Below the pieces are notes generated by a model. It saw nothing but the letters and a program-made list of their open reading frames with translations. It searched no databases and was not told the DNA's origin. Source: an uncultured Candidatus Saccharibacteria bacterium (GTDB taxonomy: Bacteria; Patescibacteriota; Saccharimonadia; Saccharimonadales; JBBQAJ01). From it: a stretch of DNA of 64,000 nucleotides. The position numbers and the translations under genes are program-made. Shown here piece by piece: positions 11,477 through 63,731 of the stretch; within the stretch, counting starts at the first letter, position 1; the number at the start of each line of letters is the position of its first letter. The DNA lies in NCBI GenBank assembly GCA_964593805.1, contig CAZQHP010000001.1, positions 91-64,090 of the forward strand. The letters run 5' to 3'.

Positions 11477-12568
11477 ATGAGTTTATCAATCGGGATTGTC
11501 GGGTTGCCAAATGTCGGTAAGTCTACGCTGTTTAATGCGCTGACAGACGGTGATATTCTGGCTGCCAATTATCCTTTTGCAACCATTGAACCAAATACTG
11601 GCATTGTGCCCATACCAGACGAACGGCTGCAAAAACTGGCAGATGTATACAAGACAAAAAACATCGTCCCCGCGACGGTTACATTTGTAGACATTGCCGG
11701 CCTGGTTGCCGGCGCCAGCCAAGGCGAAGGCCTGGGCAACCAATTTCTAGCAAATATTCGTAGTTGCAATGCCGTCTGCCATGTTGTCCGAGCTTTTACG
11801 GACGATAATGTCCTGCATGTTGACGCCAAACATAATCCTCAGAAAGATATCGAGGTTATTAATACCGAGCTGGCGCTCGCGGACCTCCAGACCGTAGAAA
11901 AACGCTTGCCCCAAAGCGAAAAAATGGCCAAAGCTGACCCCAAACTCAAGCCCCAGGTAGATGCACTTCTCTGGGCACGAGATATCCTAAACGACAGCGT
12001 GCCTTTATTTGCAGCTCCCTCACGACTTGCAGCTCACGACTTGCTTCTTCAGGAGCTTCAGCTCCTGACGGCAAAGCCGACTATATATTTATTTAACGTA
12101 GATGAAGAAACGCTGGCCGATGACGCCAAAAAATCTCAGCTGGCTCAGCTAGTCGCACCTGCGGAAGCAGTTTTTGTCTGTGCAAAGTTAGAAAGCGAAC
12201 TAAAAAGCCTGGACACTGCAGACCGCGTAGAATTGCTAGGCAGCTATGGGGTTCAAGAATCCGGGCTGGTCCAATTAACCCACGCCGCCTACGATACGCT
12301 CGGCCTGCAGAGTTTTCTGACTGCCGGCGAAAAAGAAGTCCGGGCCTGGACAATCCCAAAAAGTGCAACCGCTCCGCAAGCCGCCGGCGTAATTCATGGC
12401 GATTTTGAGCGCGGCTTTATAGCCGCCCAAATTGTAGATTATGATGACCTGATAACGGCTGGTTCAGAAGCGGCCGCTAGGAGCTCTGGCAAAGTACGCA
12501 CCGAAGGCAAAGATTACGCAATGCGCCCCAACGATGTAGTAGAATTCCGTTTCAACGTATCAAAATAG
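11477..12568 (+). CDS. ychF: Ribosome-binding ATPase YchF
   Basis: GIVGLPNVGKSTLFNALT P-loop, ..VDIAGLV.GAS.GEGLGN.FL.., and a C-terminal TGS-like ..DFERGFI.A.. Confidence 0.95.
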   Translation: MSLSIGIVGLPNVGKSTLFNALTDGDILAANYPFATIEPNTGIVPIPDERLQKLADVYKTKNIVPATVTFVDIAGLVAGASQGEGLGNQFLANIRSCNAVCHVVRAFTDDNVLHVDAKHNPQKDIEVINTELALADLQTVEKRLPQSEKMAKADPKLKPQVDALLWARDILNDSVPLFAAPSRLAAHDLLLQELQLLTAKPTIYLFNVDEETLADDAKKSQLAQLVAPAEAVFVCAKLESELKSLDTADRVELLGSYGVQESGLVQLTHAAYDTLGLQSFLTAGEKEVRAWTIPKSATAPQAAGVIHGDFERGFIAAQIVDYDDLITAGSEAAARSSGKVRTEGKDYAMRPNDVVEFRFNVSK

Positions 12569-12620
12569 CTGTTAGCTGTTAGCTGTTAGCTGTTAGCTGT
12601 TAGCTGTTAGCTGTTAGCTA
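12567..12620. repeat. Tandem heptanucleotide array (AGCTGTT) x7.7 filling the whole convergent intergenic spacer
   Basis: Direct reading. The array begins within the ychF TAG stop and ends 2 nt before the stop of the convergent gene at 12623. Confidence 0.97.
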
Positions 12621-16023: not shown

Positions 16024-16058
16024 AGCTATCAGCTGTCAGCTGTCAGCTCTTAGCTAGT
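16024..16058. repeat. Degenerate tandem heptamer array (AGCTNTC-like) x5
   Basis: agctatc agctgtc agctgtc agctctt agctagt, between the ssb stop and the efp start. Confidence 0.9.
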
Positions 16059-26094: not shown

Positions 26095-26427
26095 CTATCC
26101 CTTTGGCTGGGTCAGGTCTTTGAAAGCACCCATATCAATATTGCTAGCCGTTCCTTGATCGTTCCCTACACCGATTTGAACCAGTGGTTTGCCGCCGTTT
26201 TTATCATAACCCGTAACACCAACATCTTGTGTAGTCCCATCAGAGAATGTCAGAGTTGCTCCTTCACCTGGGGCTGGAAACTTTGCGGCGCTGGTTGCAA
26301 GTTCGCCAACTTTTGCAAGTTCCTCCTGACGAACTGTAGCAGGTATTACTTTACGATCCTCTTCTTTAGCCGAAAGAACATCTAGTGCAGAAGCAGATAA
26401 AACGTCTGGTGTTTTTGGTGCTGGCAT
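26095..26427 (-). CDS. Hypothetical 110-aa protein
   Basis: ORF with its own consensus promoter. I recognise no domain. Confidence 0.5.
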   Translation of the reverse strand: MPAPKTPDVLSASALDVLSAKEEDRKVIPATVRQEELAKVGELATSAAKFPAPGEGATLTFSDGTTQDVGVTGYDKNGGKPLVQIGVGNDQGTASNIDMGAFKDLTQPKG

Positions 26428-26473: not shown

Positions 26474-26502
26474 ATTGTAGCAAATTATTGCTATTTTGTC
26501 AA
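26474..26502 (-). promoter_or_regulatory. Sigma70-type promoter, TTGACA-N17-TACAAT
   Basis: Reverse complement reads TTGACAaaatagcaataatttgcTACAAT. It overlaps the stop of the upstream 111-aa gene. Confidence 0.65.
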
Positions 26503-26834
26503 GAATTTATAAAATCCGTCCTGTCAGACAACTCTCTAGCCCGCATATTGTACTCCTGTGAGTAAGGTGCTGCTGACGGAGTTCGCATTCGGCGCGTAAA
26601 GTACCTGTTGCTGCCGGAACCTTGGCGCACGGCGATTCCTCTATCAGCAAGCACTGCCAAATTCAGTGCATTTTCTCTTTCATTGGCTCCTGCAAAGACT
26701 CCCACCGCCACTTCACCAACCCCCGCCTTAATAGGAAAAGGGATTATTTCTGCATCACGACCTTCTTGGCCGCCTGGTGTAACAGGCTCAATTTTCGTGG
26801 GTTGTTTGTGTTCGTAAGCTTCTAGTGCTGACAT
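26499..26834 (-). CDS. Hypothetical 111-aa protein
   Basis: ORF with an upstream TTGACA-N17-TAAAGT element. I recognise no domain. Confidence 0.5.
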   Translation of the reverse strand: MSALEAYEHKQPTKIEPVTPGGQEGRDAEIIPFPIKAGVGEVAVGVFAGANERENALNLAVLADRGIAVRQGSGSNRYFTRRMRTPSAAPYSQEYNMRARELSDRTDFINS

Positions 26835-26865: not shown

Positions 26866-26894
26866 ACTTTAGCAATTTCTTACTTGTTTGTCAA
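26866..26894 (-). promoter_or_regulatory. Putative promoter, TTGACA-N17-TAAAGT
   Basis: Reverse complement reads TTGACAaacaagtaagaaattgcTAAAGT. It overlaps the truB 3' end. Confidence 0.45.
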
Positions 26895-27614
26895 TGTTTT
26901 GGAGAAATCTATCTCTGTTGGTGACTGTGCATATGATACGTCAAATTCGCCTACTTGGGTGCGGCGGAGGGCGGTCATGTAGGCGCTAGTTCCTAGTTCT
27001 TTGCCTATATCTTCTACCAAACTGCGGATATACGTGCCGGAAGAAACTTTGGCGGTGAATTTCACCTCTGGATATGCATAATCCACATCAGAAATGCTGT
27101 AAATCGTCACCCTTCGAGGCTCAAGCACCACTTCTTTGCCCTCTCTGGCTAATTTGTAAGCCCGTTGGCCATTTACTTTGACGGCGCTGAACTTGTGCGG
27201 CGTTTGCATGATTTCGCCCTGGAACGACCCCAAGACTGCCATAAAAGCTTTTTCTGATGGTTTTTCACCAGATACAATGGTCTTTTCACCCTCTTCATCG
27301 CCAGTTGTGCTGGTTTGGCCCAGTTTCATAGTCACTTCGTATACTTTGTCTAGTTTGCTAAACTCATGCGCCCGTTTGCAGTAACTGCCAAGGAGAATTA
27401 CCAAAAGTCCGGTTGCGAGCGGATCCAGAGTGCCGGCGTGGCCAACCTTCACCTTCCGTGAAGGAGTACTGAGTCGAGAGTCCTGAGTCGAGAGTTTTTC
27501 GCTCCGTACTCCGTACTCTGTACTCTGTGACTGGCGCAAAAGTCCCCTGACTTTTGCGACTACGTCAAACGACGTCCAGCCAGACGGCTTATCAATCAGT
27601 AAAATTCCATCCAC
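26880..27614 (-). CDS. truB: tRNA pseudouridine-55 synthase TruB, with a repeat-encoded insertion
   Basis: GTG start. GILLIDKPSGWTSFDVV.. and catalytic ..GHAGTLDPLATGLLVILLG. An extra ~21-24 aa lies between these motifs. Confidence 0.92.
   Translation of the reverse strand: MDGILLIDKPSGWTSFDVVAKVRGLLRQSQSTEYGVRSEKLSTQDSRLSTPSRKVKVGHAGTLDPLATGLLVILLGSYCKRAHEFSKLDKVYEVTMKLGQTSTTGDEEGEKTIVSGEKPSEKAFMAVLGSFQGEIMQTPHKFSAVKVNGQRAYKLAREGKEVVLEPRRVTIYSISDVDYAYPEVKFTAKVSSGTYIRSLVEDIGKELGTSAYMTALRRTQVGEFDVSYAQSPTEIDFSKTLTNK
27469..27531. repeat. 7-nt-periodic tract inside truB (9 units, 63 nt)
   Basis: ctgagtc gagagtc ctgagtc gagagtt tttcgct ccgtact ccgtact ctgtact ctgtgac. It encodes ..SQSTEYGVRSEKLSTQDSRLS.. 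Confidence 0.9.
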
Positions 27615-27628
27615 GAACGCAGTATAAC

Positions 27629-29341
27629 CTACGCGGGTGTGTTGCCGGGGGTGTTGGCATCATCTGCGAGAGGCATAATGGGCGGTATCAAAGGTGGAGG
27701 CACTGGCGGCGGCGCAGTTGGATTAGCTAGCGAAGCGGCGGTGCTGTCCGCGGGCAGACCGGAACCTGGCATTACTAGTCCCGCCGGCAAATTGGGATCC
27801 GCCGCTGGAGTCAAGGTTGGGGTAGCTGGAGCCGATGCATCACTTTTGTTTAGATCCACCGGAAAAGCGTTTAGGGATTGAACCGGTTCGAGCATCTGTG
27901 GCGGCGTGCCGCTGACTGCTTGCATGACAGCGCTTCGGGCATCAGAAACTCCGCTGCCGGTTTGGTTTGTGGAAGCGAGCGGTCCGGGCGTCTGAGCCAA
28001 ATGCGGGCTGCCGACCACTTTTTCCAAGTCAGAGAGAGTGCTTAGCGATTGGTTCGGTTCTGGCGCCGGGCTAGAAGCAGGACCACTAATATCTTCGGCT
28101 GTTGGCTGAAAAATACTTGTTGCCGGCGCATTTTGGCTGGTTGCCGGTGTTTCATGAGAAAGCAAAGGGCCTTGTGCGGCATTTGCGCCCAGTGGATCGA
28201 TGCTTGGATCTAGGCCTTCTGGGGTGCTGTTGGCTGTTAGCGTACCTCCAAGCGTGGGCGGCTGTGTGATTAGGCGAGAACCGGCCGAATATTCGTTAGC
28301 CTCTTCTGTTGGAAGCGGTTCAATCACTTTTTGCTTCATGGCCTCAATGTCTTTGGCTCGTTTTAGTATGCCCTCTTTGTCTATGTCTATTTGCTCTAAC
28401 GGGTTTTCTTCTGGTTCTTCGCTGTCTGGCAAAGCATTTAGATCAATTAGGGGCTTTTTGTTGCCATGATCAATCTCTAGCGAGCCGTCATCAACTTCTT
28501 CGACTTTTGTTTCAACCATTTCAGCCGGTGCCGCCGCCTGTTTGCTCTCTGTGACTTCTGGCAGTTCTGCATCGTCTTCTGCGGGAGCCTCCGTTACGGT
28601 CTGGGGCTGTAGTTGGCTGGCCACCAGTTGCTGGTTGGCGCCGGCTGCCATCAGCTTGGCGCTTAGCTGCATGGTTGCCGAAGAGGTTTTTTCATTACTA
28701 AAACGATTGGTTTCCGCCACAATACCGGTTAGAAAGGCAGTGGCCATCTGACCGTCTAGTACATCTGCTTTCAAGCTGAGACCCATGTCTAGCAGCATTT
28801 CGCATAGGCTGCTGGCATCTGGCTGCACCCAGTTTATACTGCCCAAGTTGGCCCCGTCTTGAGTGTTTACGCTTACCACCGTGGCATCGTGCAAAATACG
28901 GCCGTGAGAAGTGATGGCTTGGTCCAAATCTTTCTGCTCGTTTACCCCCAGAGCCATGACCACGTCTACGTTAAAATCACCTTGGCTGAATTCTAGGTCT
29001 TTGTCGCTTATAGAGGTCCGGTACGGCGTTATGAAAATTTTGACCATCTGGTCTTCTACTTTATAGCGCAGTTTGTCGGCTTTGGATTTGTCCAGAGCAA
29101 TTATAAAATCTCGCAGACTGTCGGTGTTTTTTTCAAGCGTCTTTTCCGGCTGCAAAAACTCAATGGTATTAGGAACCACGCCGCTAAAAACAGCTGTGGC
29201 GTGTTTGCCTAGTTTGTTGAGTAGCAAAGTCAGACCTATAACGGCCGCCAACTGATCTACCGAAGGATTAGCACGCACGGTCACTAAGACGTTATTTGCC
29301 TGCTTCAATCTGTCGGTAATCTGCTTTTTGGGGGAGTCCAT
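27629..29341 (-). CDS. DHH/DHHA1-family (NrnA-like) protein with degenerate catalytic motifs and a ~300-aa Pro/Ala/Ser-rich C-terminal extension
   Basis: ..ATAFLTGIVAETNRFS.. resembles the NrnA linker/DHHA1 region. It sits upstream of truB, as in many rbfA-nrnA-truB clusters. No canonical DHH residues were seen. Confidence 0.5.
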   Translation of the reverse strand: MDSPKKQITDRLKQANNVLVTVRANPSVDQLAAVIGLTLLLNKLGKHATAVFSGVVPNTIEFLQPEKTLEKNTDSLRDFIIALDKSKADKLRYKVEDQMVKIFITPYRTSISDKDLEFSQGDFNVDVVMALGVNEQKDLDQAITSHGRILHDATVVSVNTQDGANLGSINWVQPDASSLCEMLLDMGLSLKADVLDGQMATAFLTGIVAETNRFSNEKTSSATMQLSAKLMAAGANQQLVASQLQPQTVTEAPAEDDAELPEVTESKQAAAPAEMVETKVEEVDDGSLEIDHGNKKPLIDLNALPDSEEPEENPLEQIDIDKEGILKRAKDIEAMKQKVIEPLPTEEANEYSAGSRLITQPPTLGGTLTANSTPEGLDPSIDPLGANAAQGPLLSHETPATSQNAPATSIFQPTAEDISGPASSPAPEPNQSLSTLSDLEKVVGSPHLAQTPGPLASTNQTGSGVSDARSAVMQAVSGTPPQMLEPVQSLNAFPVDLNKSDASAPATPTLTPAADPNLPAGLVMPGSGLPADSTAASLANPTAPPPVPPPLIPPIMPLADDANTPGNTPA

Positions 29342-37823: not shown

Positions 37824-40534
37824 TACAATTCGCCCCAGTTTTTGCCGGTGGTGGCGTCTACGGTTAGCTTTACAGGGAGTTTGTGGACGTTTTCCATGGT
37901 GTCTTTGAGTAGTTTGGCGGTCGCTTCGGCTTCTTTTTCATCACATTCTACAATTAGGGAGTCATGAATTTGCAGCAGAATGCGAGCTTCTCCCGCAGGA
38001 GCAGGAAGTAAGGAGTAGGAAGAAGGGTGGGCTGTATTTTTGCCTTGCTCCTTGCTCCTTGCTCCTTGCTCCGCAAAAGCATCTAGCTTTTGCTGGACGT
38101 GAACCATGGCTAGTTTCATGATGTCGGCCGCTGTTCCCTGGAACGGCACGTTTACGGCGGCCCGTATAGCGGATTCTCGTACGACGAAGTTGCTGGAGTG
38201 CACGTCTGGCGTGGGGCGGCGTCGGCCAAACAGCGTTTCCACGTAGCCGTCTTTGCGCGCCTGCTCTTTGACGGATTCTATGTAGCCCAACAGTTTAGGA
38301 CGGACTTCAAAGTATTTGTCTATAAAGTGCTTGGCTTGTTCGTATGTCATGCCGGTAGCGGCTACCAAACCGTGCGTGCTTAGGCCGTACATGACACCAA
38401 AATTCACTACTTTGGCATCGCGGCGCATATTTTTGGTCACGTCTTGCTCTTCTCTGTCATAAATCAGCGCCGCGGTGGCAGTATGGACGTCTACGTCGCG
38501 GTTAAACATGTCTATCAGGTTGTCGTCTCCGCACAAATAAGCCGCCAGGCGCAGTTCAAACTGGCTGTAGTCGGCGCTAACCAGCATTTTGCCCGGTCCG
38601 GCTACAAAAGCCGTACGGATTTGCCGGCCCAGATCTGTTTTGACAGGAATGTTTTGGAGGTTCGGGTCATTGGAACTCAGCCGGCCAGTTTGGGCTACTG
38701 TGAGCGCAAAGGTGGTATGGACGCGGGAGTTTTCGTCTACCATAGTCGGCAAAGTATCTACGTAGGTGTTTTTGAGCTTGGTGACTTCGCGGTACTGAGT
38801 TATGAAATCAATAATTGGGTGCGCTTCCCGCAGTTTGACCAGTTCGCTGGCGGCGGTTGAATAACCGGTTTTGCCTTTTTTGATATTGGCAGTAGGCAAA
38901 TTTAGTTTGTTGAACAATATATCTGCCAGCTGGGCTGGAGAGGCTATGTTAAACTCTTGGTCGGCGTAGCCGTAAATTTGTTGTTCAAGGTCGGAAACGG
39001 CGTCATTTAACTGTTCTGCCATGAGCCCTAGGTAGTTGGTATCCAGCTGTATGCCTTCGTATTCCATGCGCGCCAGCACGGGGATAACTGGAAATTCAAT
39101 GTCTTTGGCCAGCTTGGCAACTTTTGGCATACCAGCCAGATCTTTCGCTTGCTCCTTATGTAACATGGCGATTAAACCGATAATTTCTGATCCTCTTGCC
39201 GCGTATTCTTCGGTACTTAAATCTTCTATTGAACCCTCGAAACCAATGTCTTCAGCAGCGAGAGTTTGCAAAGAAACTTCTCTACGCAAGCTATTTATAA
39301 GGAAAGCGCCAACCATCACATCGTGCTCCACGTGCGGCAGCTTTATGCCCAGTCCAATCAGTACTTTCAAGGTGTTCTTTATGTCGTAGCCAATAACAGA
39401 GTTAAGGGTTGAGAGCAGAGGGTTGAGAGCTTTAGCCGATACCTTTGAAAGATCAATAGCGTATGTTTTCTTTCCATCCTTGCTTACAAGTAATATCAGA
39501 GGATTTTGACCGTGTTTACCAGCGGAGCGGCTGTCTATAAAAATGTTTTTTGCGTCTTTAAGATCAAGTTTTGCCAAATCAGCATCGCTGCTAATCAAAC
39601 TGCTGGCGCTGCCATTGTGCTCAAATACATTTCGTTCTTTATGTTGCTCTTGCAGCTGCATTATATCCGGCAGTTGGCGGACTAGGCTGCGGAATTCCAG
39701 TTTTTGCAAAATGTCACGGATGCGTTCGGGGTGGGCTTTGGTGCCGTCTACTTCTTTCAGGTTCAGTTTTATGGGCGCATCTGTCCATATGCTGGCCAGT
39801 TTTTTACTCAGGTACGCCATGTCTTTGCCAGCTTCTAATTTTTTGCGAGTAGTTTCTTTTATCAGCACCAGATTTTCATACACTTTGTCTAGTGTGCCGT
39901 ACGCTTTAAGCAATTCAATCGCACCCTTTTCGCCTATTCCAGGCACCCCAGGGATGTTGTCTGAACTATCGCCTTTTAGCGCTTTTAGATCCAGAAACTG
40001 TGAAGCGTTTATGCCGTATTTGGCCTCAAAACTTTCCGGATGAAACAGTTCTATGTTGCTGAGTCCTTTTTTAAGTGCATATACGCTCACGTGCCAGTCA
40101 ACCATCTGCAACATATCTAAATCAGACGTTACGAGCATGGTCTCAATGTCTTTTGAGGTTGCTTGTATAGCAAGAGTCCCCATAATGTCATCGGCCTCAT
40201 AATCATCCAGCTCATATAAAGGCCAGCCAAAAGCATCTAACAGGTCATGAAGTATAGGAATTTGTTCATAAAAATCTGGCGGCGGCGGTTTGCGCCCGGC
40301 TTTGTACTCAGGGTACAGTTCCAAGCGTTTGCGAATGTTGGTTTTGGGCTTGTCCCACGCCACGCAGACATAATCCGGCTTGAGACGTTTTATAACTTCT
40401 AGCGCCATAGTGGCAAAACCAAACACGCCGCCAGTGGGTGTACCGTCTTTGGTACTCAGATTTGGCATGGCATAGTAACCACGGTAAAAGACTGACTTGC
40501 CATCAATAATCGCTAGTTTTTTGCGCTCCGCCAT
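37823..40534 (-). CDS. polA: DNA polymerase I
   Basis: 5' nuclease domain (..DNIPGVPGIGEKGA..), a 3'-5' exo-like region, and polymerase motifs ..DYSQFELR.., ..RRDAKVVNFG..YG.., ..QIHDSLIVE.. Confidence 0.95.
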   Translation of the reverse strand: MAERKKLAIIDGKSVFYRGYYAMPNLSTKDGTPTGGVFGFATMALEVIKRLKPDYVCVAWDKPKTNIRKRLELYPEYKAGRKPPPPDFYEQIPILHDLLDAFGWPLYELDDYEADDIMGTLAIQATSKDIETMLVTSDLDMLQMVDWHVSVYALKKGLSNIELFHPESFEAKYGINASQFLDLKALKGDSSDNIPGVPGIGEKGAIELLKAYGTLDKVYENLVLIKETTRKKLEAGKDMAYLSKKLASIWTDAPIKLNLKEVDGTKAHPERIRDILQKLEFRSLVRQLPDIMQLQEQHKERNVFEHNGSASSLISSDADLAKLDLKDAKNIFIDSRSAGKHGQNPLILLVSKDGKKTYAIDLSKVSAKALNPLLSTLNSVIGYDIKNTLKVLIGLGIKLPHVEHDVMVGAFLINSLRREVSLQTLAAEDIGFEGSIEDLSTEEYAARGSEIIGLIAMLHKEQAKDLAGMPKVAKLAKDIEFPVIPVLARMEYEGIQLDTNYLGLMAEQLNDAVSDLEQQIYGYADQEFNIASPAQLADILFNKLNLPTANIKKGKTGYSTAASELVKLREAHPIIDFITQYREVTKLKNTYVDTLPTMVDENSRVHTTFALTVAQTGRLSSNDPNLQNIPVKTDLGRQIRTAFVAGPGKMLVSADYSQFELRLAAYLCGDDNLIDMFNRDVDVHTATAALIYDREEQDVTKNMRRDAKVVNFGVMYGLSTHGLVAATGMTYEQAKHFIDKYFEVRPKLLGYIESVKEQARKDGYVETLFGRRRPTPDVHSSNFVVRESAIRAAVNVPFQGTAADIMKLAMVHVQQKLDAFAEQGARSKEQGKNTAHPSSYSLLPAPAGEARILLQIHDSLIVECDEKEAEATAKLLKDTMENVHKLPVKLTVDATTGKNWGEL
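37994..38070. repeat. 7-nt-periodic tract inside polA ending in (CCTTGCT) x4
   Basis: ..gcaggaa gtaagga gtaggaa gaagggt .. ccttgct ccttgct ccttgct ccttgct. It encodes ..EQGARSKEQGKNTAHPSSYSLLPAPAGEA.. just upstream of polymerase motif C. Confidence 0.85.
39405..39432. repeat. 14-nt (2x7) direct repeat inside polA
   Basis: agggttgagagca gagggttgagagct. It encodes ..KALNPLLSTLNS.. Confidence 0.8.
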
Positions 40535-50672: not shown

Positions 50673-52325
50673 CTACATCCTGTCTGGCGCGGGAATGTTG
50701 AGAAGTTCCAGACCGCTTTTTAGCGTGTCGGCATAAGCTTGAACTAAATTCAAACGGACAGCTTGGCGCGGGTCGTCCAGCACGCGGTTGTTTTCATAAA
50801 AACGGTTAAAAACCTGCGCTAGTTCGTATAAATACGTGCAGACATGATGCGGCATGAGTTCCTGTACTGCCCTGTCCACCACCTCTGTATATTCACCAAT
50901 CTTCCTTAGCAGGCTTCTTTCATCCTTTTGGAGTTTTTCTGAAGACTTTGGACTTTGGACTTTGGACTTAGCGAGAATACTTCTCGCCCTGGCGTGCGCG
51001 TACTGCAGGTACGGCCCGCTGTTGCCCTCCAGTGCCACTGATTCTGCCGGATCGTAAATGACGTCTCCGCCCATGCGATTTTTTAATAGTGCGTATTTGA
51101 CTGCCGCCAGCGCCGTAGTTTCGTCGTCTTTGCCAGTAGTTTTTTGGTTGGCCGCGCGAGCCGCGTCAATCACATCAATGGCGCGCAGTATGTTGCCCTT
51201 GCGGCTGCTCATTTTCACACCGCCAGCCAGTTTCACCATGCCGTGAGTTAGGTGCGTAGTGGCTGTTGACAATTCAGGTGCGAATTGCTCAATCGCTTTT
51301 AACACCACAGCCATGTACTGGGCTTGTTCGTTGCCGGTTATGACGACTGATTTGTCAAAGTTGTAGTCGCGCTTTTTGGCCACAATCAGCCCCACATCTT
51401 TGGCTTCGTAGGTTGGCAAACCTTCGGAGTTTACAAAAACGCGAGTGTGCAAATCATGGTCTTCGCCTTTGAACACAATTGCGCCCTCCGACTCCACGAA
51501 AACATCTGGAATGTGCTCTTTAACAGTTTGGACCCCCAGCTCTGCGACTTCGCTTTCCGGGTAGTATTTTTCAAAACTACTGCCTATGCGCTTATAGAAT
51601 TCGTCGAAATAGTCATAGCTCCACTGCCGGCATGTCCAATATATTTGCGCAAACGCAGATTCTTTGTCGCCGTCTGCGTGCAGCTGGTATACGCGTTTAT
51701 TCAGTGTGGTAATTTCGGCCTTTGCGGCTTCGTTTTCATCGTAAGCAGTCGTACCTTCTATGTAAGCCTTGGTCAGCCATTCGGCATGGTTTTCAATCGC
51801 CTTGAGCCCGTCTGGATTTTCACCGCCGAGCTCTCGCAAAATGGCCCACATGGTTTTGCCAACGTGCAGACCAACATCGCCGCCAAAGTTCACGCGGTGG
51901 ACTTTGGCTCCGGCCGCTTCCAACAAAGATGCTATCCCGTCCCCCACCACGGAGGTATACAAATGGCCAGCATGCAGGACTTTGAATGGGTTCGGGTCGG
52001 AATATTCCGCTACGACTTCTTTGCCTGCCAAGACGCGCATTGGCTTCTGAGCCGCAAGCTTAGTCAGAGCTGCGTCTGTCAACGTTAAATTTATAAACCC
52101 CGGGCCAGCGATATCTGCGGACACAATGCTGGGATGTTTCAGAGCCGATTTAAGGGTTTCGGCAACTTCGCGCGGGTTTTTATCCAGCCGTTTGCCCAAC
52201 TGAAGGGCAACGCTGGTAGCGTAATCGCCGAATTGCTCGTCGGGGCGCGTCAAATCCACCTCAACGTCAACGTTGAACAATTCTTTGCACGCCCCCGCGA
52301 TTGCCTGCTCCAGTTCTTGCCTCAT
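50673..52325 (-). CDS. argS: Arginine--tRNA ligase, with a repeat-encoded insertion
   Basis: ..YSDPNPFKVLHAGHL.. (HIGH-type), ..MSSRKGN.. (KMSK-type), and a C-terminal DALR anticodon-binding region. Confidence 0.95.
   Translation of the reverse strand: MRQELEQAIAGACKELFNVDVEVDLTRPDEQFGDYATSVALQLGKRLDKNPREVAETLKSALKHPSIVSADIAGPGFINLTLTDAALTKLAAQKPMRVLAGKEVVAEYSDPNPFKVLHAGHLYTSVVGDGIASLLEAAGAKVHRVNFGGDVGLHVGKTMWAILRELGGENPDGLKAIENHAEWLTKAYIEGTTAYDENEAAKAEITTLNKRVYQLHADGDKESAFAQIYWTCRQWSYDYFDEFYKRIGSSFEKYYPESEVAELGVQTVKEHIPDVFVESEGAIVFKGEDHDLHTRVFVNSEGLPTYEAKDVGLIVAKKRDYNFDKSVVITGNEQAQYMAVVLKAIEQFAPELSTATTHLTHGMVKLAGGVKMSSRKGNILRAIDVIDAARAANQKTTGKDDETTALAAVKYALLKNRMGGDVIYDPAESVALEGNSGPYLQYAHARARSILAKSKVQSPKSSEKLQKDERSLLRKIGEYTEVVDRAVQELMPHHVCTYLYELAQVFNRFYENNRVLDDPRQAVRLNLVQAYADTLKSGLELLNIPAPDRM
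50944..50971. repeat. Tandem heptamers (GACTTTG) x3 plus one degenerate unit inside argS
   Basis: gactttg gactttg gactttg gacttag. It encodes ..KSKVQSPKS.. Confidence 0.95.
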
Positions 52326-55269: not shown

Positions 55270-55787
55270 ACGACTATATAGCGGCTCTACTGTTTTTTCT
55301 TCCGGCTGGAGTGGGTAATATGAGCCCGGTGATTGCCAACAGACTGCCGCTTATCAAAAACTGGAACGCGCCAATGGATTTTGGCAAAAGCTGGCGCGGC
55401 CAGCGGATTTTGGGCGGCAATAAACGGCTCCGGGGCATTGTATTCGGCACAATCATGGGCGGTTTGACGGCTGTTGTTGTCAGTAAATTCAACGCCAATA
55501 CGGTGGTCACCATCGCGCCGTTTTGGGCCGGTTGCCTGCTGGGCTTTGGCGCTTTGGCCGGAGACGCCGTGGAAAGCTTTTTCAAGCGCCAGCACGGATT
55601 GGATCCTGGTGCCAGTTGGTTTCCGTTTGATCAAATTGATTACATAGCCGGCGGCTTGCTGGTAATTTATCCATTTGTCCAGTTGCCTCAATGGTCCATG
55701 GTAACGATTGTGGTGGTATATTTTGGCCTGCATCTCACCACCGCCTACAGCGCGTTTCTGCTAGGCCTCAAAGACAAACCTATTTAG
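55266..55787 (+). CDS. CDP-archaeol synthase-like (CarS / DUF46) membrane protein
   Basis: ..GNMSPVIANRLP....PMDFGKSWRGQRILGGNKRLRG.. and ..GDAVESFFKRQ.....G....FDQIDY.. match the CarS family pattern. ATGA overlap with the PHP gene. Confidence 0.7.
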   Translation: MNDYIAALLFFLPAGVGNMSPVIANRLPLIKNWNAPMDFGKSWRGQRILGGNKRLRGIVFGTIMGGLTAVVVSKFNANTVVTIAPFWAGCLLGFGALAGDAVESFFKRQHGLDPGASWFPFDQIDYIAGGLLVIYPFVQLPQWSMVTIVVVYFGLHLTTAYSAFLLGLKDKPI

Positions 55788-62651: not shown

Positions 62652-63731
62652 ATGATAATTCTTGGCATAGAAACCAGCTGTGATGAAACGGCTTGCGGGA
62701 TTGTGCAGAACGGCAAAAAACTTTTGGCAAATGCAGTGCTTTCCAGCATGGATTTGCATGCCGTATACGGCGGCGTAGTCCCGGAAATCGCCGCCAGAAG
62801 CCACATTGAAGCGATTATCCCTGTTATTCAGCAAGCTTTAGGGCAAGCAAACTGTACTTGGGACGACATTGACGGAATTGCGGTAACCTACGGTGCTGGG
62901 CTGGGCGGTTGCCTGCTGGTGGGCGTCATGACCGCCCGCACGCTGGCAATTGCCAAAAACAAGCCCATGTACGCCGTCAACCACGTTGAAGCGCACGCTT
63001 ATGCCAACTTCCTAACGGAAGTAGCTAACAGCTTACAGCTGACAGCTGACAGCTATAAATTACCGCATTCCGCACCTTCCTTTCCCATGTTAGGGCTAAT
63101 AGTCAGTGGCGGGCATTCGCAGCTGGTCCTCTGGCGCAATCACTTTGATTACACCTTGCTAGGGCAAACGCAAGACGACGCTATAGGTGAAGCGTTCGAC
63201 AAAGTCGCCAAAATACTTGGTCTCCCCTACCCTGGCGGCCCCAGTCTGGAGACATTTGCCAAAAACGGCGACCCAAATGCCTTTAGTTTCCCCAAAGCCA
63301 AGATGAGCAACAGATACGACTACTCATTTAGCGGCATCAAAACAGCCGTTTTGCGCGCTGCCCAGAAATTAATAGGTGAAAACCACGACTTCCCTTCCCA
63401 TAAGCTTTCAGAACGGCTCTCAGAGGCTCAGAAAGCAGACATTGCGGCCAGCTTCCAGCGTGTGGCCGTGGAAACAGTAGTAGACAAGACGTTACAGGCC
63501 TATGAGGAGTTCAATCCACGAAGCGTTGTCATCGGCGGCGGCGTAGCCGCCAGCCCGGAACTTCGCCGCCAATTAGCCGAACGCCTTCCCATCCCTATCG
63601 AATATACAGACATGAAACTATGCACCGACAACGGCGCCATGATAGCCACCCTCGGCTGCTTCAAAGCTATGAATAATCAAGAAAAAGCCGACCCCTACTC
63701 TCTAGAAATCGCCCCAAATTTATCAATGTAA
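62652..63731 (+). CDS. tsaD: tRNA N6-adenosine threonylcarbamoyltransferase TsaD, with a repeat-encoded insertion
   Basis: MIILGIETSCDETA.. and ..NHVEAH...VSGGHS.. The ATG at 62652 lies 7 nt after TATACT. Confidence 0.93.
   Translation: MIILGIETSCDETACGIVQNGKKLLANAVLSSMDLHAVYGGVVPEIAARSHIEAIIPVIQQALGQANCTWDDIDGIAVTYGAGLGGCLLVGVMTARTLAIAKNKPMYAVNHVEAHAYANFLTEVANSLQLTADSYKLPHSAPSFPMLGLIVSGGHSQLVLWRNHFDYTLLGQTQDDAIGEAFDKVAKILGLPYPGGPSLETFAKNGDPNAFSFPKAKMSNRYDYSFSGIKTAVLRAAQKLIGENHDFPSHKLSERLSEAQKADIAASFQRVAVETVVDKTLQAYEEFNPRSVVIGGGVAASPELRRQLAERLPIPIEYTDMKLCTDNGAMIATLGCFKAMNNQEKADPYSLEIAPNLSM
63021..63055. repeat. Tandem heptamers (ACAGCTG-type) x5 inside tsaD
   Basis: gtagcta acagctt acagctg acagctg acagcta. 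It encodes ..VANSLQLTADSY.. between the HxxxH region and the VSGGHS motif. Confidence 0.92.

Follow-up and report, generated by a model that had tools for sequence, protein, structure and literature searches.

A translated palindrome of heptanucleotide arrays in the truB gene of a Candidatus Saccharibacteria bacterium

The truB gene analyzed here lies on a 64,000-nucleotide (nt) stretch of DNA from an uncultured Candidatus Saccharibacteria bacterium (assembly GCA_964593805.1, contig CAZQHP010000001.1), which in its whole length is called the window and to which coordinates refer. The gene (26880..27614, minus strand; taken from the list of open reading frames, ORFs) has a GTG start at 27614 and encodes 244 amino acids (aa) in a frame that is open throughout. 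Codons 24-53 (GLLRQSQSTEYGVRSEKLSTQDSRLSTPSR; 27456..27545, minus strand), delimited by comparison with orthologues, constitute an insert in which two arrays of tandem 7-nt units face each other as inverted copies. What was observed directly is the arrangement of the repeats, the palindrome, how inserts are distributed among orthologues, and a genome-wide excess of heptamer arrays. The insert is probably a translated palindromic heptamer cassette, which would have been built by slippage in a 7-nt register combined with fold-back or template-switch synthesis, is tolerated in a surface loop of the enzyme, and may have been shuffled between lineages by recombination.

The truB product matches TruB_N (PF01509) in Pfam with E=4e-48 and TruB structures of the PDB with E=1e-37, which places it in the TruB family of pseudouridine-55 synthases, essential enzymes of tRNA modification, and it was aligned to 1sgv, 1r3f and 1k8w. 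The catalytic motif GHAGTLDP with Asp64, located by alignment to solved TruBs, is encoded directly downstream of the cassette (27420..27443, minus strand), and the columns of this motif (GH(T/A)GTLDP) are invariant across 46 aligned orthologues. Between motif I and the catalytic motif the translation reads ..FDVVAKVRGLLRQSQSTEYGVRSEKLSTQDSRLSTPSRKVKVGHAGTLDP... Solved TruBs align to residues 3-25 and again from residue 56 on, with 4 residues in between compared to 30 in the window protein, confirming the proposal of an earlier note on this DNA that, judged against other TruBs, the segment has been inserted in frame. The cassette stands in place of the ten residues G-I-V-K-H-E-T-G-L-K of insert-free orthologues, the closest of which (P0003) is 20 residues shorter. 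The net insertion with respect to P0003 is thus 60 nt, and the description of the tract as 63 nt, or three times 21 nt, hinges on the boundaries chosen. At the other end of the protein, the Pfam model TruB_C_2 is matched over positions 1-31 of 66 only, so that no full PUA domain is present. This C-terminal PUA-type domain is mostly missing in the window TruB and in all close homologues, which bear the names Saccharibacteria or Saccharimonadales and comprise about 214-280 aa, compared to 309-327 aa in solved bacterial TruBs.

Within the 87-nt insert, the match at a lag of 7 nt is 0.54 and that at 14 nt is 0.48, while other lags give 0.15-0.31; none of 2000 shuffles reached the lag-7 value. Tandem Repeats Finder (TRF) reports one array at 27464-27495, described either by a period of 14 (2.3 copies, 94% matches) or by a period of 7 (3.6 copies, 77% matches), and a second one at 27502-27525 with a period of 7 (3.4 copies, 94% matches). 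Both arrays therefore contain at least three head-to-tail units of 7 nt, and the earlier description of the tract as made of heptamers holds by either measure. Likewise, the nine 7-mers listed there for positions 27469-27531 are read exactly so on the plus strand. They do not form a single tandem array of nine units, however. The two arrays are inverted copies of a single unit family, GAGTNNN, placed around a 7-nt loop, and together give rise to an imperfect palindrome (H2) that is flanked by two further hairpins (H1 and H3); moreover, the periodic tract begins at 27464 instead of 27469. With 3.4-3.6 copies and 77-94% matches, the truB arrays are not the long perfect tracts of a phase-variable locus; perfect arrays are found in polA and argS.

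The coding strand folds as three consecutive hairpins, H1-H2-H3, which span about 135 nt. H1 (27535..27558, minus strand), observed in minimum free energy (MFE) folds, reads GCAAAAGTC-AGGG-GACTTTTGC and is a perfect 10-nt inverted repeat (I4) with a 4-nt loop. The conserved codons for V-A-K-V make up its 5' arm, the start of the insert its 3' arm; in L129, L144, L207, L204 and L210 the sequence of the H1 arms differs while their complementarity is kept. The 5' arm of H2 (27502..27531, minus strand) is, in the coding-strand reading of the TRF array, (GAGTACR) repeated about four times. It is followed by the apical loop CGAAAAA (27495..27501, minus strand; MFE structures) and by the inverted array of the 3' arm (27464..27494, minus strand), the plus-strand units of which are GAGTACT, GAGTCGA, GAGTCCT and GAGTCGA. 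Both arms are joined by the inverted repeat I1, which measures 24 nt and has 75% complementarity around the loop. H3 (27446..27464, minus strand; CCTTCAC-GGAAG-GTGAAGG) uses the conserved K-V-K-V codons as its 3' arm and the codons for P-S-R, where the insert ends, as its 5' arm. In MFE folds it forms in the window gene and in all insert-bearing relatives, including the shortest (L212).

In the AlphaFold2 (AF2) model of the window TruB, the core is normal and the predicted local distance difference test (pLDDT) score is 91.7. Helix alpha1 is predicted to extend to residue 39, followed by a coil of lowest confidence formed by residues 40-56, with block means for the insert of 55-82. The insert occupies the surface loop between alpha1 and beta2 and ends 7 residues upstream of the catalytic Asp64.

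Comparison with close homologues reveals that the insert site is variable. Of 120 homologues, 115 contain both flanking motifs in one open frame; in the other 5, where one search motif or both are missing, either the gene call is truncated at the N-terminus or the motif carries substitutions. An insert of 2-55 additional residues is present in 65 of the 115 close Saccharibacteria TruBs, and 50 show the insert-free form G-x-V-K-x-E-T-G-L-K-K-P-K-V-G-H, which is found in other phyla as well. An intron or translational bypass is ruled out, since inserts of about 17 lengths are all open and in frame. At the DNA level, 13 insert-bearing genes, including that of the window, were compared with one insert-free gene, L213. 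The dominant period is lag 7 or 14 in 11 of the 13 (the window gene and 10 of the 12 others); the lag-7 value of these inserts was reached by none of 2000 shuffles, except for L082 with 20 of 2000. The exceptions are L208, which has an 8-nt unit repeated 12 times, and L209, the longest insert, which lacks periodicity. The units themselves vary by lineage (GAGTACR, TAGTCAG, CAAGTNN, GTTGAAA, GGAAATA and AGTSAAA), and the hairpin architecture recurs in each insert-bearing gene with its own sequence. Non-repetitive DNA in relatives, the observation which according to the earlier note would speak against heptamer expansion, is accordingly not what was found.

Several relatives display what can be read as stages of growth. 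L212 consists of H3 and a single AGGACTC unit, L211 holds four AGGACTC units (+21 nt, +7 aa compared to L212) and no partner arm, and the insert forms of 30-34 residues add the inverted arm. A difference of 7 aa also separates P0061 from P0022 within one insert type, so that whole-unit differences in copy number between relatives are seen twice. Heptamer expansion in frame-preserving blocks, as suggested earlier, is therefore traceable in relatives (L212 to L211), but the window tract is neither recent nor private: orthologues whose cores are 74-77% identical hold an insert of the same length that is 80-84% identical in nucleotides. The idea that the unit of the 3' arm was seeded by the ancestral ACG GGA CTC codons of insert-free genes is retained as speculation only, the GGACTC match being in another frame in L212.

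Two broader scans were made. A search of a genome collection with the TruB alignment returned, among the matches listed, mostly insert-free or distant TruBs; split tblastn matches rank low in such a search. In a metagenome pattern scan, KVKVGH(T/A)GTLDP proved to be common in other phyla, the relevant matches being L129 and L144 only. A different insert of 10-14 residues (for example LSEEAGYVEVVGKDGVTRQKRKKVKVGH), apparently conserved at the protein level, occupies the same alpha1-beta2 site in more distant Saccharibacteria and other TruBs of the candidate phyla radiation (CPR; L017, L111, L131, L010 and L020), and this loop seems to attract insertions in general. Moreover, a second stretch of truB is encoded by heptamers in three relatives (ACAGCAT in L208:3602-3626, ACAGATT in L211:655-685 and AGTTACA in L129:2242-2271). 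It corresponds to the beta-hairpin before YPEVKF in L208 and L211 and to the loop after TTGD in L129. In L208 and L211 the length of the protein is unchanged by this stretch (SIQLTAYS, TVYSLQMTDYT), as if a 7-nt homogenizing process had overwritten existing codons.

The insert and the remainder of the gene differ in their pattern of conservation. In a close trio formed by the window gene, L081 and L082, amino acid identity is 0.52-0.61 in the insert versus 0.75-0.77 in the core, and nucleotide identity is 0.80-0.84 in the insert versus 0.67-0.73 in the core. Variable sites of the trio are spread evenly over the codon positions (9/6/8). Because of the low amino acid identity, this even spread, and the occurrence of unrelated inserts in enzymes with cores 90-97% identical (91-97% for P0009/P0015 versus P0037), the peptide looks unselected and its sequence unconstrained. 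Furthermore, insert and core similarity are nearly uncorrelated (Spearman 0.07). Outside of codons 16-60 the window gene is nearest to the insert-free L213, whereas inside it is nearest to L081 and L082. Since a deletion could not restore the ancestral ETGLKKP, insert-bearing and insert-free forms are best regarded as alternative alleles that have been exchanged. Judged from these sequence comparisons, a cassette that is discordant with the core phylogeny and conserved in nucleotides points to exchange by recombination or to a constraint at the nucleotide level.

Heptamer arrays are not a peculiarity of truB but are found in polA, tsaD, argS and at three intergenic sites of the window as well. 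TRF yields period-7 arrays at seven loci, four of them in frame in conserved enzymes and three intergenic, and 8 period-7 rows in total compared to none in 30 composition-preserving shuffles. Period 7 is in excess over other periods in the 64-kb window: exact tandem arrays of at least three units occur for k=7 only, at 4 per 64 kb, as opposed to 3 per 1.18 Mb in non-CPR loci; 129 kb from more distant Saccharibacteria contain none. Relatives also have heptamer arrays outside of truB. Instead of being predominantly intergenic, the arrays in truB, polA, tsaD and argS are located in frame inside ORFs.

A counterpart of the truB cassette is found in polA, where a perfect array (CCTTGCT, 4.3 copies) is combined with a degenerate inverted array (37997..38072, minus strand; TRF and fold) in the same hairpin architecture. 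Its in-frame translation reads ..AEQGARSKEQGKNTAHPSSYSLLPAPAGE.. and inserts about 28 residues into PolA. The insertion separates the positions equivalent to Klentaq residues 482 and 485 and lies shortly before polymerase motif C. The spacing at this site is 15-18 residues in most PolA homologues and 25-35 in some, and the homologue peptides ANSSQLTAS and QLSVVSHQS match the unit families of tsaD and truB. In tsaD, an in-frame TRF array of AGCTGAC (4.6 copies; 63023..63054, plus strand) encodes VANSLQLTADSY, and an insertion of about 14-16 residues relative to PDB entry 13fn, in the stretch that separates the metal-binding motif HxxxH from the motif VSGGH, falls exactly at the array. The in-frame argS array detected by TRF, a perfect GACTTTG (3.7 copies; 50944..50969, minus strand), encodes SKVQSPKS in a variable linker after GPYLQYAHAR and adds no net length compared to E. 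coli ArgRS (4oby). The three intergenic TRF arrays are a perfect TAGCTGT (7.7 copies; 12566..12619), which according to its ORF context fills the gap between two convergent ORFs, a perfect CCGCTGA (4.7 copies; 2452-2484), and AGCTGTC (3.6 copies; 16024-16056). Together with the tsaD array (63023-63054), they belong within 1 mismatch to one unit family, xCAGCTGx, and share no flanks. A pattern search for the truB unit array, with a 17-mer and up to 3 mismatches allowed, revealed no second copy in the 64-kb window.

These observations can be combined in the following scheme. Replication slippage in a 7-nt register, a register favoured by bacteria in general, would seed and resize the arrays. Fold-back or template-switch synthesis at partly self-complementary units would then generate the inverted partner array as well as the inverted copies of the flanks. 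In essential genes, the survivors would be arrays that keep the frame, contain no stop codon in any phase, and are positioned in permissive surface loops; such a filter would produce the 21-nt steps and the degenerate super-period of 14/21 nt. The encoded peptide may be a passenger, consisting of a helix extension and a disordered loop. The H1-H2-H3 cassette would segregate as several alternative alleles, the ancestral insert-free one included, which might be swapped between lineages by homologous recombination.

Several points weigh against this scheme. Synonymous third positions of identical residues are the same in 78-82% of cases in codons 16-60 compared to 38-51% in the flanks (Fisher p of 0.007, 0.0015 and 5e-5), and one insert type is 88-92% identical across proteins with cores that are 73-77% identical. 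As a neutral passenger should diverge faster unless the exchange was recent, selection at the nucleotide level might be at work. Length steps of 21 nt, which the earlier note suggested looking for in related strains, are seen from L212 to L211 and between P0061 and P0022, but the lengths of the 65 inserts are not quantized in steps of 7 aa. The preference for a 7-nt register and the recurrence of xCAGCTGx at four unrelated loci are left unexplained. Finally, slippage, template switching and recombination are inferred processes. A bolder version of the cassette hypothesis, in which H1-H2-H3 is a discrete, self-maintaining unit with several long-lived, nucleotide-conserved types that are exchanged at a fixed truB site and have analogues in polA and tsaD, is rather improbable, albeit worth considering. 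If true, it would represent either a new in-frame selfish palindromic element made of heptamer arrays or a selected DNA or RNA structure in essential CPR genes.

Conservation of nucleotides beyond that of the core, with a peptide that is not conserved accordingly, would also be expected if the hairpins were a selected nucleic-acid element in truB mRNA or single-stranded DNA and the peptide merely its price. Such an element could serve as an RNase III or degradosome entry site, or as a module that adjusts truB and, downstream of it, rpsO-pnp by pausing translation. The folds are indeed far more stable than those of shuffles and synonymous recodings: in 11 of the 13 insert-bearing genes the region exceeds its dinucleotide shuffles in folding stability (z of -2 to -5.6), the insert-free control L213 having a z of +1.4. 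Moreover, H1, H2 and H3 are formed anew in each insert type from a different sequence, and H1 and H3 recruit conserved core codons with unusually conserved synonymous sites. However, the sense strand is the more stable one in only 7 of 13 genes (Wilcoxon p=0.54) and no enrichment of G-U pairs is detectable; because sense and antisense fold equally well, the complementarity is of the Watson-Crick type at the DNA level. RNAalifold across insert types of equal length gave 7 double changes and a covariation term of +3.24, and the cassette was rejected as one conserved RNA family, because the gapless pairing register differs among types and this term is positive. In the close trio 95% of positions are paired, a level that 59 of 500 shuffles also reach, so that covariation is not significant; a comparison of variability between its paired and unpaired sites gave no significant difference (odds ratio 0.5, p=0.28). 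A scan of Rfam at E up to 10 gave chance-level matches only, none of them at the truB tract, and neither a terminator-like site nor a promoter was found in the tract. Mimicry of the T-arm, by which TruB would bind its own mRNA, was dismissed, as the loops of H2 (CGAAAAA) and H3 (NNNAAGG) are without the UUCRA pattern and vary between relatives. Given in addition that polA has the same architecture and that half of the orthologues, interleaved in the tree, are without an insert, a selected element of this kind is considered unlikely.

The discordance between insert types and core phylogeny is likewise compatible with a selfish palindromic element, comparable to the Rickettsia palindromic elements (RPEs) or of a homing type, that moves horizontally and targets the truB site instead of arising by local slippage. 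In line with this idea, the mosaic boundaries fall roughly at the outer arms of H1 and H3, near-identical cassettes reside in cores of 73-77% identity, and alleles with and without an insert are intermingled in the tree. However, no second truB unit array exists within the window, the unit differs from locus to locus, the arrays have no flanking sequence in common, and terminal repeats or target duplications beyond the hairpins are missing. The graded series from one unit over four direct units to the hairpin (L212, L211 and the remaining forms) argues for local growth, and the second heptamer site of truB also differs between close orthologues, so that variation is not confined to the cassette. 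As ordinary homologous recombination, acting between the conserved flanks, would account for the mosaicism, a dedicated mobility mechanism is not needed, and a mobile element is a doubtful explanation. Still less probable, and indeed hardly to be expected, is a functional extension of TruB, in which a longer alpha1 and loop contact tRNA or a partner and possibly compensate for the missing PUA domain. The modelled continuation of helix alpha1 through residue 39, the position 7 residues before the catalytic Asp, the loss of most of the C-terminal domain and the retention of the insert in many lineages would fit, but peptide identity below nucleotide identity, substitutions even over codon positions, unrelated peptide types in near-identical enzymes, 50 of 115 orthologues of the same short architecture without an insert, and low AF2 confidence for residues 40-56 do not. 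That the periodicity arose by chance or through faulty assembly is given practically no weight. Taken singly, the arrays have modest TRF scores (36-57), and folding of the tract by itself yields a z-score of only -1.4; nevertheless, shuffles fail to reach the lag-7 signal, window shuffles yield no period-7 arrays, and the same feature occurs in at least 12 independent assemblies (ENA, JGI, NCBI and Logan). A locally grown, translated heptamer cassette with recombining alleles thus accounts best for the data.

The cassette also affects the annotation of truB. The public protein (P0001, 219 aa, 100% identical) begins at an internal TTG, codon 26, inside H1; this start drops the conserved motif I (ILLIDKPSGWTSFDVV). 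A Shine-Dalgarno-like AGGGGA in the H1 loop, preceding the TTG codon (27537-27545 for both together), probably misled the gene caller, and gene calls beginning within the cassette are a hazard for annotation. Upstream of truB, an ORF of 570 aa (27629-29341, minus strand) has no Pfam match at the default threshold, and its homologues in relatives have a faint or weak DHH match. Its C-terminal half is long, of low complexity and rich in Pro, Ala, Ser and Thr, with a 12-nt repeat at 27634-27656. Between truB and rpsO, two small ORFs on the minus strand (26095-26427, 110 aa, and 26499-26834, 111 aa) are without a Pfam match, and this spacer is variable, holding 0-2 unannotated small genes in relatives. 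Elsewhere in the window, TRF finds a 29-nt unit in two copies with 80% matches (55355-55413).

If the proposed origin is correct, conserved proteins can acquire new, tolerated segments from DNA that is prone to slippage. Non-triplet repeats, normally thought to be excluded from genes, would provide a concrete route to new protein segments in TruB, PolA, TsaD and ArgRS, and the birth of such a segment is traceable through intermediate stages in related genomes. The same arrays represent a mutational hazard, as a slip by one unit in the perfect polA or argS array would shift the reading frame of the gene. Furthermore, in these naturally competent, genome-reduced CPR bacteria the locus is tractable for asking why 7-nt repeats are favoured and whether hairpin cassettes are exchanged or selected.

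Among known systems, the RPEs were reportedly described by Ogata et al. in 2000 as selfish palindromic repeats that lie within protein-coding genes and keep their frame. They have one common consensus of about 100-150 bp, of which many copies are dispersed. As with RPEs, the DNA inserted in frame into conserved housekeeping genes is hairpin-forming, translated, exposed at the protein surface and tolerated by the fold. In contrast to RPEs, each locus has its own 7-nt unit, neither a shared consensus nor shared flanks were found, dispersed copies of one consensus are not seen within the 64-kb window, and stages of local growth can be recognized. Hairpin-promoted repeat expansion, for example of CAG/CTG, and template switching at quasi-palindromes are known processes, with which the truB cassette shares units that are self-complementary, hairpins that are imperfect, and insert ends that repeat neighbouring sequence in inverted orientation. 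It differs from CAG/CTG expansion in its 7-nt unit, which allows only changes by three units to keep the frame.

A close parallel is provided by the heptanucleotide repeats of other bacteria. According to PMC4679880 and PMC4692102, which cite a survey by Mrazek 2007, these are the most abundant class of long simple sequence repeats in bacteria, and polymerase-footprint slippage is proposed as a hypothesis for their origin. Examples are the TAACTGA repeats of Beggiatoaceae (PMC4679880) and the GGGAATC and GGGGAYT repeats of Xanthomonas and Nostoc, respectively (PMC4692102). The heptamer families of cyanobacteria (short tandemly repeated repetitive sequences, STRR), Beggiatoaceae and Xanthomonas are almost always intergenic (PMC4679880, PMC4692102). 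Repeats with a unit length not divisible by three would be expected to be kept out of genes. No report linking heptamer repeats with CPR bacteria or Saccharibacteria turned up in a literature search on these subjects. The arrays of the window resemble the known repeats in their tandem 7-nt units, in the genome-wide excess of period 7, in one favoured unit family at unrelated loci, in occasional inverted array pairs able to form stem-loops, and in length and sequence that vary among close relatives. However, whereas bacterial heptanucleotide repeats are overwhelmingly intergenic, four of the seven arrays in the 64-kb window are in frame and translated in conserved essential enzymes. Moreover, the truB site keeps its 7-nt period across the whole clade while the sequence of the unit changes. 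This retained period with changing units, together with translated inverted arrays in several essential enzymes and a cassette-like history, sets the present case apart.

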